Part shown: piece after piece, positions 18,001-24,000 of the stretch
Position numbering within the stretch: the first letter of the stretch is position 1
How the letters are laid out: each line of letters begins with the position of its first letter
Source of the DNA: Pseudomonadota bacterium
GTDB lineage: Bacteria; Bdellovibrionota; Bdellovibrionia; Bdellovibrionales; Bdellovibrionaceae
Length of the DNA: 64,000 nucleotides
Direction of reading: 5' to 3'
Assembly (NCBI GenBank): GCA_041178425.1
Contig: JBEGVH010000014.1
Coordinates: 1 to 64,000 of the forward strand
Position numbers: made by a program

Positions 18001-21000
18001 CCTTATTGGTAAAATTACTAATCTTGGATCTCGTGGTGCCCAGATGCTCACAAAAAAAATGAATGGCGTCATGAGCTCGCCCTCCGACGAAGGTTTACAG
18101 CTCATCCGTCGTGTGCAGGCACAGTCTGAATCTATTGCGAATCATTTTGATCAAAGAGATTTTTCGAAAGCCATCAGTGAAATCCGCGCCCTAGCCGATG
18201 ATGCCAACAAATTTTTCGATGAAAAAGCACCCTGGAAAACTCTTGAATCAGATCCCAAGGGCACCAAAGAGGTCGTTAGCACTATTCTCAATGTGTTTAG
18301 GATGTTAACGATTTATCTAAAACCGCTTCTTCCTGTTTACGCGGCCAAGGTTGAAAAACTCTTTGGAGAAAAGCCCTACTCTTGGTTTAGTGTTGGTCAA
18401 ATTTTAACCGACACTCGATTGAACGAGTACGAACATCTTGCCGTTCGCATTGACCCATTGAAAGTGACCGCTATTGTTGAAGAAACAAAAAAACTTCAAG
18501 AAGCGAAAGCGCCAACGGCTAACGTGCCAGCTGCTGCCACAACAAATAAAAAGAGTTTAGCAGAGCAAAAAGAACGAACTGCTGTTGGCCAAACCCCGGT
18601 CATTAGTTACGACGATTTTGCCAAAGTAGACCTCCGAGTCGCAAAAATTTTAGAAGCAGAAATTATTCCCGAGGCTGATAAGTTGCTTCGATTAAAGGTC
18701 GATTTAGGAGAAGAAAATCCTCGTCAAATCATTGCCGGAATCCGCAGCGCCTACCAACCCCAGGATCTGGTTGGTCGACTCACTGTGGTGGTGGCTAACT
18801 TGGCTCCTCGAAAAATGAAATTTGGAATTTCAGAGGGAATGGTGCTCGCGGCCGGTACCGGAGGAACAGAGCTCTTTATTCTCAATCCTGATCAAGGCGC
18901 CAAGCCCGGAGATGCGGTAAAATAATAAGGATAGCTAATGAACCTTCAATTGCTCTGGCAGAGGGCCAACGAACTTGCTCGTCACTTTACATCGGAAACG
19001 CCCGAAACGGAGGAGTTCCAAAAACTCCTCCGCGAATTTAAAGAGCTGCAAAAGCACCAAGACCCCCAACTCAACAAAATTGGTCGACTCGCTGTTATTT
19101 TTAATGATAATTGGTCGCAACGCCAGTGGCTCAACTTACTCGTTCCTCTTGAGCGCTATCTCGATCGCCGACTCACTGATCCGGATATGATTGGATTCAT
19201 TCCCGATGAAAAAACTGTGGCTTCGCCGAAACTTCCGTTGATTGTTATCGCGGACCACTGGCGTTCCGCATTTAACGTTGGCGCCCTATTTCGATTAGCC
19301 GATGGCTTCGGCATTCAACAAATCTACCTCACAGGTTACACCCCCACCCCCGAACAAGCCTCGGTTGCCAAAACCGCGATGGGGAGCATTGAATGCACGC
19401 CCTGGGCCCACCGTGAATCAACTCTTGAACTCCTTGAAGAAATAAAACAACAAGGGATTGCCGTTTGGGCCATCGAAACCACTCCAGAAGCAAAAAATCT
19501 TGGTGAGGTCTCCCTCCCCTCCCCGCTCGCTCTCGTGCTCGGTAATGAGCGTTTTGGACTGGATCCAAAAATTATTGAAGCCTGCGAAGGAACAGTGAAA
19601 ATTCCATTACGAGGAATGAAGAACTCCATGAATGTGGCAAATTGTTTTGGAATAGTTGCTTTTGAATGGTGTCGGCAAAATGCAAAATAGTTTTACGTTT
19701 GAGCCTATTGCTTATTTTGAATGTAATAAAAAGCAAAACCTCGAAGCGAGCTCTCAAGGAATCCTCGACCCCGACTCAATAGGATTAATTGATCTGAAAA
19801 AGTATCCCCAGCACAAAGAAATGCTCGAATCCCTCGATGGGTTTTCTCACTTATGGATAATTTTTATTTTTCATCAAAACAGTGGTACCTGGAAACCCAA
19901 GGTGCTTCCTCCTCGAGCGAATAAAAAAGTTGGGGTTTTTGCCAGCCGCAGCCCCTATCGCCCTTCACCCATCGGAATGTCGGCCGTCAAAATTGATCGC
20001 ATTGAGGGTTCGAAAATTTATGTTTCGGGGCACGACCTTGTGGATCAAACTCCAATTCTCGATATTAAGCCCTATCTCACTTACGCCGATTCGTTTCCAG
20101 AGGCGAAGAGAGGTTGGCTCGATGAAACAGATATCTATCAAGTAGAGATCGGAGATATCGCGCGAAAGAAAATTGATTTTCTCAAATCGCAAGGCTTAAT
20201 GGAGATGGAAGCGACCATCGAGCAACAGCTTCGCTTCCATCCCACCGACAAACAACGCAAACGAGTACGACCACTCAATGAAAGCCCTCATCACTTTATT
20301 TTTTCCTACCGCACCTGGCGGATCTTCTTTGAACTCAGAGATAAAACAGTGTTCATCTCCGACATAAAGAGCGGCTATACTCAAGAAGAACTCACAATGA
20401 GCGAAGATCCTTTTGCGGATAAGTCGACGCATCGCTCATTTAATTTATTAAAATAATCATCATCGAAACCATTGAGCCCTAGATTTTGACAATCTTAATT
20501 TTTTACTTAAGGAAAAAACCCTAATGCGACAAAGACTGAGCACAAGTTTTAGCACTGATCGAAACTTTTAAGTAATTTTTGAAGACCTCGGTAAATTCCC
20601 TGTTCACTCGACTATTCCAGGAATTATCGACCTTCATTGCTACTCTGCGCATGGCGAGAATCTTTTCAGGATTTTGTTGATAAAGGGCCAAGGACTTTTC
20701 GAGGGATGAAAGCAAGGAGTTGGTGGTCGCCTTAACATCGTAGCCAGATCGATCATCTTTCCACACAATATCAAATAAAAAACCTGACACATCGTCGTGA
20801 ACGGAATTGGAGAGTCCACCCACCCGACTTAATATCGGAATCGTTCCGTTCTTCAAAGCAAACATTTGATTGAGTCCAGAAGGCTCAAACCAAGCGGCAT
20901 TAATGAAAAAGTCACCATAGGCTTTAAGAAACTTTTCTGATCGCTCAGAAAACTTCTGGTACCGCAACTTATTGGGAAACTTTTGTTCCAGTGCCTTTAA

Positions 21001-24000
21001 TTTTTGGATATAGGCCTCTTCGCCATCACCAATCACAACGAACTGGGCCTCACGTTGATCTAAAAATTGTTCGATGGCCTGAGGCAAATACTCATACCCT
21101 TTTTGCTCTGCCACCCGTGACGTTAAAATATAGATGGGACTATCAGACTTTACTGGAAGGTTTAATTCTTTTTGCAAAGCCGCTTTACCAGTGGCCTTGC
21201 CAGTGAGGTCATTCGCTGTAAAAGTCCACTGTACAGCCTCGTGATAAGATTGGGCGGGGTCCCACTTTGAGTTGTCAATACCGTTCAAGATACCCACGAG
21301 GCGATTTTCTTCGTTGGTTTTTCTCATGAGACCATCAAGCCCGGCTCCAAAAAGCGGAGTGGAAATCTCGCGAGCATAATTAGGCGATACTGTGTAAACC
21401 ATGTCGCTCATAAGTATCGCCGCCTTCAGATAATTGACTTTGCCGTAGAATTCTATTCCGTGCTCGACGGCAAAATAGTCCGACGGAATTCCTAATGTCT
21501 CTAACATAGAGACCGGATACAAGCCTTGAAAGGCCAGATTATGAATCGCCGTCACGACTTTGGGAACACGTCGTCCCTGTTTTTTTGCCATATCTAAAAA
21601 CAGAGCCACCAATGAACTGTGCCAATCATTTAAAATAACGATATCATAATTTTGTTGAACAATGTATTCGCTCACTGCCTTCGACCAAGCACCAAATCCC
21701 TCACCGAGCGTAGCCTCGGGTCCGTAAAACTTTTTACCTTGGGTATTGCGATTGTCGAAATAATTATTCTTTGTTGATGCGTGCCTAAAAAAAACAATTT
21801 CTCCTTCATTTTTAGCCGGTGCCTTAACCACAAAAAATTCAGCCTCTCGCTGAGCCCGTCCCTCTCGAACATCTAAACCAATATCGATGTGTTGGTTTGA
21901 ATAACTCAAATTACTGGGAGCATTCATTTGTAAATAATAAGGCATCGCAATATCAGCATGAATTCCCTCTTCGTTAAATGCCGAGGCCAAGCCACCCACC
22001 GCATGAGCCAAACCACCCGTCTGAAAAATCCCGGTGGTTTCTGCACTCACCAGCAACACTCGCGTTTTATGAGACGCCCAAAGGAAGTTTTGAAAGAAAA
22101 GTACCGACAAACTCACTAAGATTGCATTCTTCATAGGACTTCTACCGCCTTTAAGTAAACAAAACCTGTATAATTAAAACCAAAGCTAACCCAGCAATTG
22201 GCATTCCAGGCCCTGCTCAAATATGTTTAAAGAACACCCCTCAAGACCGTCAAAGGTATCGCCGAACTGACGGTTTCCGCTCTTTTTTTGGGTGGGATGG
22301 CCAATCCATGGCCTCCGCAATTTGACTTCTAGCCATCGCCCCCCAAAAAAATAATCCGTGAAAAGTAAAAAGTACCTAAATATTTTTTATTGAAATGTCT
22401 AACAATTTTCGTCAGCACCATTAATCACTTCGATAGCGGGGTTTTAAAATGCTTTTTAGGTGTCACCCTGCTTGCAACAGCAAGGATGGATGGAGGCGCC
22501 ATGAAGAAGACATTTTCACTTTTAGTTTTTGGGGTACTGAGCATCCTCTCCAGTTTGGCGCATTCAGCACCTGCCGAGGTCACTATTCAAAGTATTTCAA
22601 CCAGTGGCGAAGGGTGTCCTGAGGGGCAAACCGCGGTTACAATTGCTCCAGACCAAAAATCATTCTCAGTTTTGTTTGACCAACTACTCACAGAAAGCAA
22701 TCAGCAAACTCCACTGAGTCAAAAAGAATGTTATCTTACAATCACCAGTAAGGTGCCGGCTGGATGGCGCTACGTCTTTCATGCCGATGACTACCGCGGC
22801 TTCGCCCAAAGTGAAAAAGGCAGTCAATCAACCCTAAGATTATTTTATCATTGGCTTAATCCAAAAAATCGTTGGGTATTAATTGGCAAAAAACAAAAAC
22901 AGTTTAATACTAACTTCAATGACAATTTTACTATTCACAAAGACGCAAAGATCCTTCAACCCCAGCGCCATCGCTGTGAGGAGCATCTAGAAACCGTTCA
23001 CATACAAATTCAAATGAGAAGCCGCTCACAAACCAAGATGGTCACATCAAGCCAAATGGCAATCGACTCCTTCGACGGACGCATAGAAGGACTGAAGCAA
23101 AGTTGTGGCTATTGAGCCTTTTTAAAATTTAAAACATTAGAGGGGCAAGGGATAAAGTCAAATGGGGAAGAAATCAAAGTTTACCATTCGATGAGTACAG
23201 CACCAGGAGCGCCTTTGCCAGATTCAGCGTAATACCCATGAACGTGATCTGTCCCTCCACCTCCAGCACCAATAAATTGACCAGCTCCACCGGGTCCACC
23301 CATACCGTAGGAACCACCAACTCCGATTCTTTTTCCTCGAAAAGACAAGCTCTCGCCAAATCCAGGACTATAAATGCTAATAGGAGCCCCTCCTCCCCCG
23401 CCTTTTCCCCTGGCAACCTCAACTCCATTTCTTATGACTATGGTTGGCTGCCCATCATTACCGAATCGACCCATACCAACTGGAACAGGAACACCTCCAC
23501 TGCCTATCGTGACTTGAATGATGTCCCCTTCTTTTACCGCAATTGTCTTAAGTTCAACTTTTCCTCGATACCCGCCATCAGGTTCTCCCCTCTGATCACT
23601 GCCAGAACCACCAGATCCCCCACCGCCAATGGCAGTTATGGTAATCTTGGAGACGCCCTTCGGTACAGTCCAAGAAAGCGATGTTTGAAAGGGAGCACCA
23701 GCTAGGCGAGCCGCCTGACCTCCATTAGTAAGAATCCAAATAGAGCCTTTCGCTACAACAGGAGGGGGCGTGGGTGTGGGTGGATTTACTTTTGGTGGCC
23801 CAGGGGGAGTCACTCCCGCCACAATGGTGCCGCCATCCCACCATTGTGGAACAGTGTATGGATCAACGCGAGCCGCACAATCAAAGGTGGCATTGATCCC
23901 ACCCGTCCAGGTGAAGGAAGAAACAAAATGAGTAATCTCACACGTCACTGGATTGGGAAGATCTTGGCAATGAGGTTCCAGCGTTGAAGGGTTCACTGCA

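Follow-up and report, generated by a model that had tools for sequence, protein, structure and literature searches.

The analysed window is a stretch of 64,000 nucleotides at the start of contig JBEGVH010000014.1 of a Bdellovibrionaceae genome, which is 100% complete with 1.17% contamination. The whole window was also found, with 3 substitutions and 0 gaps, inside a single contig of X3, a run that belongs to another study; this near-identical run is possibly the source DNA. On the minus strand the window carries a gene for a glycogen synthase homologue of family GT5, of which the features are listed in Table 1.

Table 1. Features of the GT5 gene and its predicted product (positions in the window)
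Feature	Position	Strand	Remarks
GT5 glycogen synthase homologue gene, product predicted to be exported	20521..22134	minus	537 aa
Predicted Sec/SPI signal peptide, residues 1-20	22075..22134	minus	read from sequence, heuristic
QTGGLAH motif, residues 38-44; Q38 for E. coli K15 and H44 for D21 (ribose-contact positions)	22003..22023	minus	alignment to 3d1j
T338 (for the adenine-contacting Val/Ile) with invariant phosphate-binding R340 and K345	21100..21123	minus	family alignment
E400, aligned with E. coli S360 and five residues past base-stacking aromatic F395	20935..20937	minus	family alignment
FEPSGL catalytic motif, residues 416-421, E417 = E. coli E377	20872..20889	minus	E417 in 69/69; alignment
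Lone-cysteine tag, C531-L535, the protein's only Cys, behind a variable linker	20530..20544	minus	C-terminal

The predicted product scored 356.4 bits against the glgA model TIGR02095 (cut-off 328.45), and PF08323 together with a GT-B C-terminal domain spans its full length. It could be aligned with an ordinary GlgA (P0077) at 31% identity over 518 columns, close to the 31-33% given in an earlier note on this DNA, which had already described the product as a complete GT5 glycogen synthase that carries a Sec signal peptide. The AlphaFold2 model had a mean pLDDT of 95, and its top Foldseek match was E. coli glycogen synthase (3cop, TM 0.78). Counterparts of the E. coli catalytic residues D137, H161, R300, K305 and E377 are all kept. 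In the family alignment D170 and H198 are each present in 68 of 69 sequences (a single gap in each case), R340, K345 and E417 in all 69, and the acceptor-channel positions Y137 and W171 in 67 and 65. EPxGL was identified in 64 of the 68 homologues and EPxGQ in the remaining 4, in line with the 58 of 62 reported before for (F/Y)EPxGL. The protein therefore resembles E. coli glycogen synthase (3cop/2qzs; TIGR02095) in its GT-B fold, in passing the subfamily cut-off and in its catalytic and acceptor-site residues, but it differs from this enzyme by a Sec leader, a terminal cysteine tag and four substitutions in the nucleoside pocket, and, unlike bacterial GlgA, it is encoded without a genomic GlgC and outside any glg operon. 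A search of the ESM Atlas returned ordinary GlgA clusters only, and the promoter and terminator scan stayed at chance level.

The 68 homologues (P0002-P0069) scored 390-867 bits at 39-69% identity and the next match dropped to 251 bits; by this comparison the family is a well-separated clade of Bdellovibrionota. Carriers were found in 8 of 401 phylum genomes, spanning four families, and the gene was not found in two genomes of the same genus within this sample. The 80 metagenome loci carried mostly ordinary GlgA, with L271 as the one family member recognised. Hydrophobic leaders, called by our own heuristics and not by SignalP, were present in 60 of the 68 homologues and in 2 of 163 ordinary GlgA proteins, which extends the earlier count of 53 signal-like N-termini among 62 homologues. 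A positive n-region was seen in 57 of the 60 leaders and a small-x-[AG] cleavage motif in 59, while no twin-arginine (Tat) motif occurred in the 68 sequences. A lipobox cysteine at +1 was not found in the product itself, of which the sole cysteine is residue 531, and a lipobox expression matched 1 of 89 family leaders. Some relatives have lipoprotein-type leaders (P0251 in the scan, P0249 and P0130 by eye), and these also imply export. Sec export of the product is thus well supported by sequence. Such an exported clade is surprising, because glycogen synthases need nucleotide sugars. Family membership alone suggests a predatory lifestyle of the source bacterium. Literature searches returned no description of this exported GlgA-like family or of the cysteine tag.

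Four residues that contact adenosine are changed together, in E. coli numbering K15Q, D21H, V298T and S360E, so that Q38, H44, T338 and E400 stand in place of the KxGGL lysine, D21, V/I298 and S/A360 of ADP-glucose-type GlgA (EC 2.4.1.21). Gln at the K15 position was observed in 56 of the 68 homologues (57/69 of the family versus 2/164 of the outgroup), His at the D21 position in 60/69 versus 1/164, and Thr at position 338 in 65/69, where 150/164 outgroup sequences have Val or Ile. E400 is present in all 69 core members, in 23 of 25 deeper members (the other 2 have gaps) and in 3/164 of the outgroup. The K-to-Q exchange in KTGGL, on which the earlier note had focused, was found again; however, it occurs in just 3 of the 25 deeper members, and E400 is the more constant change. 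In the available text of PMC6086201, the counterparts of the four changed residues in AtSSIV (Lys39, Asp45, Ile330 and Ser395) are adenosine binders, and an excerpt of PMC2576272 lists K15 as invariant and substrate-binding in glycogen and starch synthases. Cyanophora paradoxa GBSSI (PDB 6gng) is also a GT5 enzyme with Glu at +5 past the base-stacking aromatic; it is eukaryotic and granule-bound, and its previously reported preference for UDP-glucose was not reproduced in the authors' own assay, according to the same available text (PMC6086201). The rewired pocket is a hint that the donor is not ADP-glucose but probably UDP-glucose: judged from these residues, UDP-glucose would be a somewhat probable donor, ADP-glucose a rather unlikely one and any other donor unlikelier still. 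For GT5 enzymes, the four-residue change amounts to a natural experiment on how the donor is chosen.

The C-terminal tag follows the pattern C-x-x-[LAVI]-[FLH] around a lone cysteine. A cysteine lies within the last 25 residues in 65 of the 68 homologues, it is the sole cysteine of the mature part in 51, and the strict motif is present in 49. The earlier description of the family as exported and GlgA-like with an intact catalytic Glu stands, but it lacked this tag. The sister pair P0010 and P0020 has neither leader nor tag and keeps the rewired pocket, and in P0249 and P0130 the lipobox-type leader takes the place of the tag. The tag was also identified on unrelated exported proteins, and within families it stands at the C-terminus in some members and at the mature N-terminus in others. 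Tagged proteins of the same genome include folds of nucleotide-dependent enzymes, with an amidoligase and an ABC1 kinase over the cut-off (the latter begins at a contig end, and its leader was not seen) and PARP, ART, HipA and PPDK_N folds below it; an IucA-like tagged protein gave no usable model by single-sequence folding (pLDDT 32). Further cargo is of wall or periplasm type (SleB-like, SLT, YkuD, S8 and S41), so that a tag does not necessarily imply delivery to a cytoplasm. With the amidoligase as query, phmmer reached 7 of 30 loci; a motif pass recovered 15 of 30.

Genome-wide, enrichment of the tag is only modest. A matrix trained on the family found it at a score of at least 0 in 22 of 693 leader-bearing proteins versus 8 of 1248 others (p 3e-5), and at a score of at least 2 in 11 versus 4 (p 0.005). 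The tag expression matched at the C-terminus in 19/865 versus 9/1043 (p 0.02) and, without significance, at the N-terminus in 23/865 versus 16/1043 (p 0.10). In 400 kb of genome G126 one clear tagged protein was found and the enrichment was not significant. MYXO-CTERM is a type of C-terminal sorting tag, and such tags are likewise short terminal signals with a conserved cysteine, carried by proteins that a predatory lineage exports through Sec; in contrast to them, the tag described here has no transmembrane helix or basic tail and also occurs at the mature N-terminus. The short cysteine tag may mark proteins that are sent into prey. Since G072, G099 and G126, all of them complete genomes from the same family, have it as well, the tag provides a testable handle and a route to list candidate prey-directed proteins.

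In the genome itself no glgC over the cut-off and no GH13, GH57, GH77 or GlgP were found, as the earlier note had it for GlgC, GlgB and GlgP. By its predicted leader and the missing GlgC, the product differs from a cytoplasmic GlgA with a genomic GlgC on both counts. The 11 distinct carrier genomes (12 handles, of which G405 duplicates G076) likewise gave no GlgC over the cut-off. Across the phylum it was over the cut-off in 0/401 genomes, with 2/401 at E<=1e-60; its absence is therefore phylum background, not specific to carriers, and was rejected as a co-occurrence signal. The earlier heading of genomes without GlgC and GlgB holds in the carriers for GlgC; for GlgB it is right for the present genome but not for the family. 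In two carriers (L018 and L019) a GlgB-like protein with a signal peptide and an N-terminal tag is encoded directly upstream of the family gene, and carrier G404 has GlgB/GlgE-type ORFs that look cytoplasmic by sequence. Twelve GlgB-like proteins with leader and N-terminal tag lie above the score gap, and catalytic D334/E389/H453-D454 is invariant. A phylum search for the tagged form gave 8/401 matches at 33-38% identity, which is the level of ordinary GlgB, and none of the 8 belongs to a GT5 carrier among these 401 genomes. A phosphorylase was identified in 2 of the 11 carriers. The genome has two GalU over the cut-off, so that UDP-glucose need not be derived from prey.

According to the accessible parts of PMC4829429 and PMC11046441, Chlamydia trachomatis secretes GlgA and GlgB, but not the donor-making GlgC, and uses host UDP-glucose. 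The pattern of exported GlgA and GlgB without GlgC is predicted in L018 and L019, whereas the genome studied here has no GlgB, and the sequence hints at use of host UDP-glucose as in Chlamydia. The same sources describe for Chlamydia type III (or plasmid-dependent) secretion, retention of GlgC and intrabacterial glycogen, and a eukaryotic host. The present family is a dedicated exported clade with a tag and a cleavable Sec-type leader, at odds with leaderless type III export, though no search was aimed at a T3SS; its host would presumably be bacterial prey. The tree of the family was built without chlamydial GlgA. The family may be analogous to secreted chlamydial GlgA/GlgB, but by way of Sec and tag. 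Chlamydia in its eukaryotic vacuole is the only close precedent found; convergent evolution of such a system in predatory bacteria would be new. How Bdellovibrio gains access to prey cytoplasmic contents is called an open question in the available portion of a 2023 review (PMC10225642).

On balance, we favour as probable that the product is an active alpha-1,4-glucan synthase which, once exported, polymerises prey nucleotide-glucose outside the predator. After Sec export, the enzyme would pass the predator periplasm; the type II secretion system or the type IV pilus apparatus is the probable route, and the lone-cysteine tag would serve as an address or an anchor. In the prey cytoplasm or a leaking bdelloplast the enzyme would then polymerise NDP-glucose, of which the most likely form is UDP-glucose, a general product of Gram-negative prey. 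The polymer would be branched and glycogen-like where GlgB is co-exported and linear in this genome. The inert polymer would trap prey carbon, which secreted GH15 glucoamylases and a glucose-family PTS could recover. Export of a second glycogen-building enzyme in the same manner in L018 and L019 counts for this explanation. The genome has three GH15 proteins with leaders; the gene of one lies immediately upstream of EIIABC-HPr-EI, that of another immediately downstream of gspCDEF. The EII scored 518 bits against the GlcNAc model and 489.5 against glucose IIBC, neither over the cut-off. GH15 is present in all 11 carriers but also in 237/401 phylum genomes (18/20, 50/57 and 13/17 in three carrier families), and its co-occurrence was rejected as specific support. 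T6SS VipB and T4SS VirB4 were not found in the genome. The wider proposal, that a position-independent lone-cysteine tag directs Sec-exported proteins into prey, with a UDP-glucose-retuned synthase and in places a branching enzyme among the cargo to build the predator's glycogen store, is put forward tentatively and is rather doubtful. The observation of the earlier note is confirmed, and its interpretation supported in part.

Instead, the enzyme could be an effector for sabotage: by draining UDP- or ADP-glucose from the prey it would block envelope repair, capsule or trehalose synthesis or free NDP for salvage, with glucan as a by-product. The patchy, accessory spread, the tag shared with ART-, kinase- and amidoligase-like proteins and the lack of branching enzyme, GH13 and GlgP in this genome fit this unlikely alternative, but the exported GlgB of L018 and L019 implies a role for polymer structure in some lineages, and the GH15-PTS cluster is a possible harvest route. 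We give less weight still to a periplasmic or surface enzyme that makes a glucan coat or cyst material, or that glucosylates a lipid or protein, for the predator itself and from a donor which the predator supplies, with the cysteine as membrane anchor. Bdellocysts have been reported to hold an amylopectin-like glucan, although a literature search on it returned nothing; the two GalU of the genome would suit such a role, as would P0249 and P0130, where replacement of the tag by a lipobox-type leader is expected for a cysteine anchor. However, the periplasm normally lacks nucleotide sugars, and no conserved transporter, polymerase or flippase gene adjoins the family gene in the carrier loci that were read.

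That the protein merely binds prey glycogen, or runs in reverse from glucan and NDP to NDP-glucose, is improbable. The lost K15 and D21 contacts would here reflect a reduced synthase activity, and K15 is the residue listed as invariant and substrate-binding (PMC2576272, available excerpt). The conserved catalytic residues and the invariant new Glu nevertheless suggest a retuned site instead of a decayed one. Moreover, the equilibrium of glycogen synthase favours synthesis, to which the branching enzyme partner points as well. Least probable is an ordinary cytoplasmic synthase on the cell's own UDP-glucose with a mis-called N-terminal extension: GalU is present, and P0010/P0020 retain the pocket with neither leader nor tag, but n-, h- and c-regions are recognisable in 57-59 of the 60 leaders at otherwise unalignable N-termini, compared with leaders in only 2/163 of the outgroup.

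The ORF is a GT5 enzyme by every test run: its product scores 356.4 bits with TIGR02095 (cut-off 328.45), both PF08323 and PF00534 are present, and it is 31% identical to an ordinary GlgA over 518 columns. Its predicted fold (pLDDT 95) is that of a GT-B glycogen synthase and matches E. coli GS (3cop) with a TM-score of 0.78. Residues 1-20 are read as a predicted Sec/SPI leader. The full GT5 glycogen synthase with a signal peptide described in an earlier note is confirmed; features of ADP-type GlgA are lacking. The observation is real and stranger than was reported. The stretch is contained in freshwater and lagoon metagenome runs, and in run X3 one contig spans it entirely with 3 substitutions; X3 may be the source of this DNA.

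A homologue search yielded 68 proteins (390-867 bits, 39-69% identity; next match 251 bits), and deeper members were added by profile search. A 164-tip FastTree phylogeny took in 94 sequences of the family and a random 70 of the 164 outgroup sequences. All family members formed a single clade (support 1.0, stem 0.55), in which the sole extra tip, P0288, is a fragment with the family tag at its own end. Named members are MAGs of Bdellovibrionaceae, Pseudobdellovibrionaceae, Bdellovibrionales and Bacteriovoracaceae. Among 401 phylum genomes the family was found in 8, spread over four families, and not in two genomes of the same genus.

Leaders, n-regions and cleavage sites were called with our own heuristics, not SignalP. 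A hydrophobic leader was present in 60/68 homologues compared with 2/163 ordinary GlgA, with a positive n-region in 57 and a cleavage-type motif in 59 of the 60. In five of the eight leaderless homologues the start is short or cut, in P0057 a leader-like stretch falls under our threshold, and P0010 and P0020 have long, charged N-termini. An extra region between leader and GT5 domain was seen in P0250 (∼140 aa) and in the protein of locus L101.

Residue numbering was anchored to E. coli GS via the 3d1j alignment. All 69 core sequences have R340, K345, N284 and E417, while D170 and H198 are each present in 68, with a single gap at either position, so that catalysis, judged by its residues, looks intact. 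Compared with the 164 outgroup sequences, systematic differences were seen at four positions: Q38 (57/69 core; outgroup K 144, Q 2), H44 (60/69; D 152, H 1), T338 (65/69; V or I 150, T 3) and E400 (69/69; A 137, S 24, E 3). The replacement of the KTGGL lysine by glutamine, noted earlier, holds for the core and is rare among the deeper members, of which 3 of 25 have Gln38; this lysine (E. coli K15) is given in PMC2576272 as invariant and substrate-binding in GS/SS. Since E400 is constant in all 23 of these that cover the position, it is the better hallmark. In the excerpted text of PMC6086201, the equivalent Lys39, Asp45, Ile330 and Ser395 of the AtSSIV structure touch ribose and adenine, and Cyanophora GBSSI has Glu at +4 and +5 past the stacking aromatic; its UDP-glucose preference was reported earlier, whereas that paper's own assay gave no such preference. 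For the family there is a hint only of a retuned nucleoside pocket, which would most likely favour UDP-glucose.

Positions of the synthase, associated genes and tagged proteins (G000, genome of the window; C, its contigs; L, loci; tag, C-x-x-[LAVI]-[FLH])
Feature	Position	Strand	Remark
Exported GT5 synthase	window 20521-22134	-	537 aa
Signal-peptide branching enzyme, N-terminal tag	L018:5974-7938; L019:5998-7959		directly upstream of exported synthase
Secreted GH15 glucoamylase, PTS EIIABC, HPr, EI	G000:C14:158769-164294 (L241)		
gspC-D-E-F, leader-bearing GH15	G000:C21:74560-82826 (L242)		
Uncharacterised IucA/FhuF-like exported family	L207-L236; query L013:5200-6522	-	32/61 family genomes; tag switches ends
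Lone-Cys-motif proteins, examples	G000 C26:44196-45521; C6:213883-215115; C40:6129-6803; C9:242174-245491		
Lone-Cys-motif protein, G126	L165:8563-9684		
Synthase with extra N-terminal region	L101:700-3189		∼250 aa
TreS-like GH13	L137:2082-4223	-	carrier genome G205
Bufferin-like RiPP cluster	window 12714-14706	+	
DUF4360 protein	window 22390-23115	+	adjoins synthase
Three pilin-like genes	window 23181-26697	-	

The genome of the window (3.06 Mb, 100% complete) contains no glgC over cut-off and no GH13, GlgP, GH57 or GH77, which bears out the reported lack of glgC, glgB and glgP. Two GalU over cut-off and three GH15 genes with leaders were identified. Of the GH15 genes, one immediately precedes those for a glucose/GlcNAc-family EIIABC, HPr and EI, likely a sugar-harvest cluster in a predator lineage, and a second lies directly downstream of gspCDEF. 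When the absence was followed into relatives, that of glgC over cut-off stood (0/12 carrier handles, corresponding to 11 distinct genomes) but is shared by the phylum at large (0/401 genomes), and that of glgB did not, as a GlgB homologue is present in L018 and L019. GH13 genes occur in 11/12 carrier handles, many being, from sequence, leader-bearing amylase-like or cytoplasmic glucosidase-like ORFs, and a phosphorylase in 2/11 carriers. One carrier has a TreS-like GH13 (below cut-off) with a leader and an N-terminal tag-like Cys.

For the gene upstream of the synthase in L018 and L019, all best models (400-457 bits, below equivalog cut-offs) and the top PDB matches are GlgB, and a Cys follows just behind the leader. 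A score gap sets this homologue apart with 11 others (P0122-P0133, 12 proteins in all), and in these the catalytic Asp, Glu and His-Asp are invariant; by eye, ten show a tag-like Cys after the leader, another shows a lipobox and the last starts at the Cys. Contigs of equal size suggest two further GT5-GlgB pairs, P0050/P0124 and P0063/P0127.

C531 is the sole cysteine of the query. A Cys lies within the last 25 residues of 65/68 homologues, with [LAVI] at +3 and [FLHY] at +4; the tag Cys is the sole Cys of the mature part in 51/68, and the strict motif is found in 49/68. Such a Cys occurs in 3/52 outgroup proteins, one of them a deeper family member. MYXO-CTERM offers a comparison. The sisters P0010 and P0020 lost leader and tag together in one event and are possibly back in the cytoplasm, yet keep the rewired pocket.

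The motif recurs on proteins unrelated to the synthase. In 30 loci of the IucA/FhuF-like Bdellovibrionota family, for whose identity IucA_IucC on 42% of one Atlas cluster is a lead, a script placed the tag at the C-terminus in 24 and at the N-terminus in 4 (L232 doubtful), and the other two were tagged by eye. A single mature Cys is present in 26/30, and the N-terminal-tag forms are distant members without the C-terminal Cys. Amidoligases, by eye, carry the tag N-terminally (L187, L188, L199, L203, L206) or C-terminally (L200, L202). The tag is thus portable. Genome-wide enrichment was modest under crude filters, and no convincing example emerged from ∼990 kb of loci of other phyla. In G000, ∼25-30 leader-bearing proteins have the lone-Cys motif C-terminally or just past the leader, including wall enzymes and folds resembling those of amidoligases, kinases and ADP-ribosyltransferases. 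A Pfam scan of 34 candidates, 32 from this genome, gave nucleotide-dependent matches (amidoligase and ABC1 over cut-off; PARP, ART, HipA, PPDK_N and FhuF below) and wall or periplasm types (TGase-elicitor, YkuD, S8 and S41 over; SleB-like and SLT below).

An apparently intact GT5 enzyme, a conserved predicted leader, a rewired pocket and a portable Cys tag are established at sequence level, as is the tagged GlgB with a leader that adjoins the synthase in some relatives. The synthase may cross the predator outer membrane and act where prey NDP-glucose is available, and GH15 and the PTS would then harvest the product. Such export with storage and harvest is somewhat favoured over the other readings taken together. 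The same chemistry might serve sabotage, which we consider unlikely, and a glucan for the predator envelope is less probable again; bdellocysts are reported to hold an amylopectin-like glucan, and a literature search on bdellocysts returned nothing. A non-synthetic role, to be set beside the conserved catalytic residues, is improbable, and a cytoplasmic enzyme, for which P0010 and P0020 might speak and the leaders of the others do not, is very improbable.

The boldest reading still open, that the tag is an address for delivery into prey, is a doubtful one. Four secretins and a type II system are present in this genome; VipB and VirB4 were not found in it. Access to the prey cytoplasm is listed as an open question in PMC10225642, and a term search did not find the motif in passages of that paper, PMC12622784, PMC12428579 and PMC12419801. 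Neither the exported synthase nor the tag was found to be described in open-access PMC (Creative Commons) and bioRxiv literature. The system closest in working is that of Chlamydia trachomatis, in which, according to extracts of PMC4829429 and PMC11046441, GlgA and GlgB but not GlgC have secretion signals and GlgA accepts UDP-glucose. The exported synthase is not a member of it, as export signal and host differ.

Beside the synthase, and divergent from it, lies a DUF4360 protein with a leader-like stretch, a neighbour not seen in the other carrier loci. The three consecutive genes beyond encode proteins with Cys-rich bodies and N-termini like those of type IV pilins; one includes a glycine-rich domain, and there was no pilin Pfam match. 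In L017, too, pilin-like genes are found close to the synthase. Three genes make up the Bufferin-like cluster, one for a small Cys-rich precursor, one for an MNIO BufB maturase that scores over cut-off, and one more.
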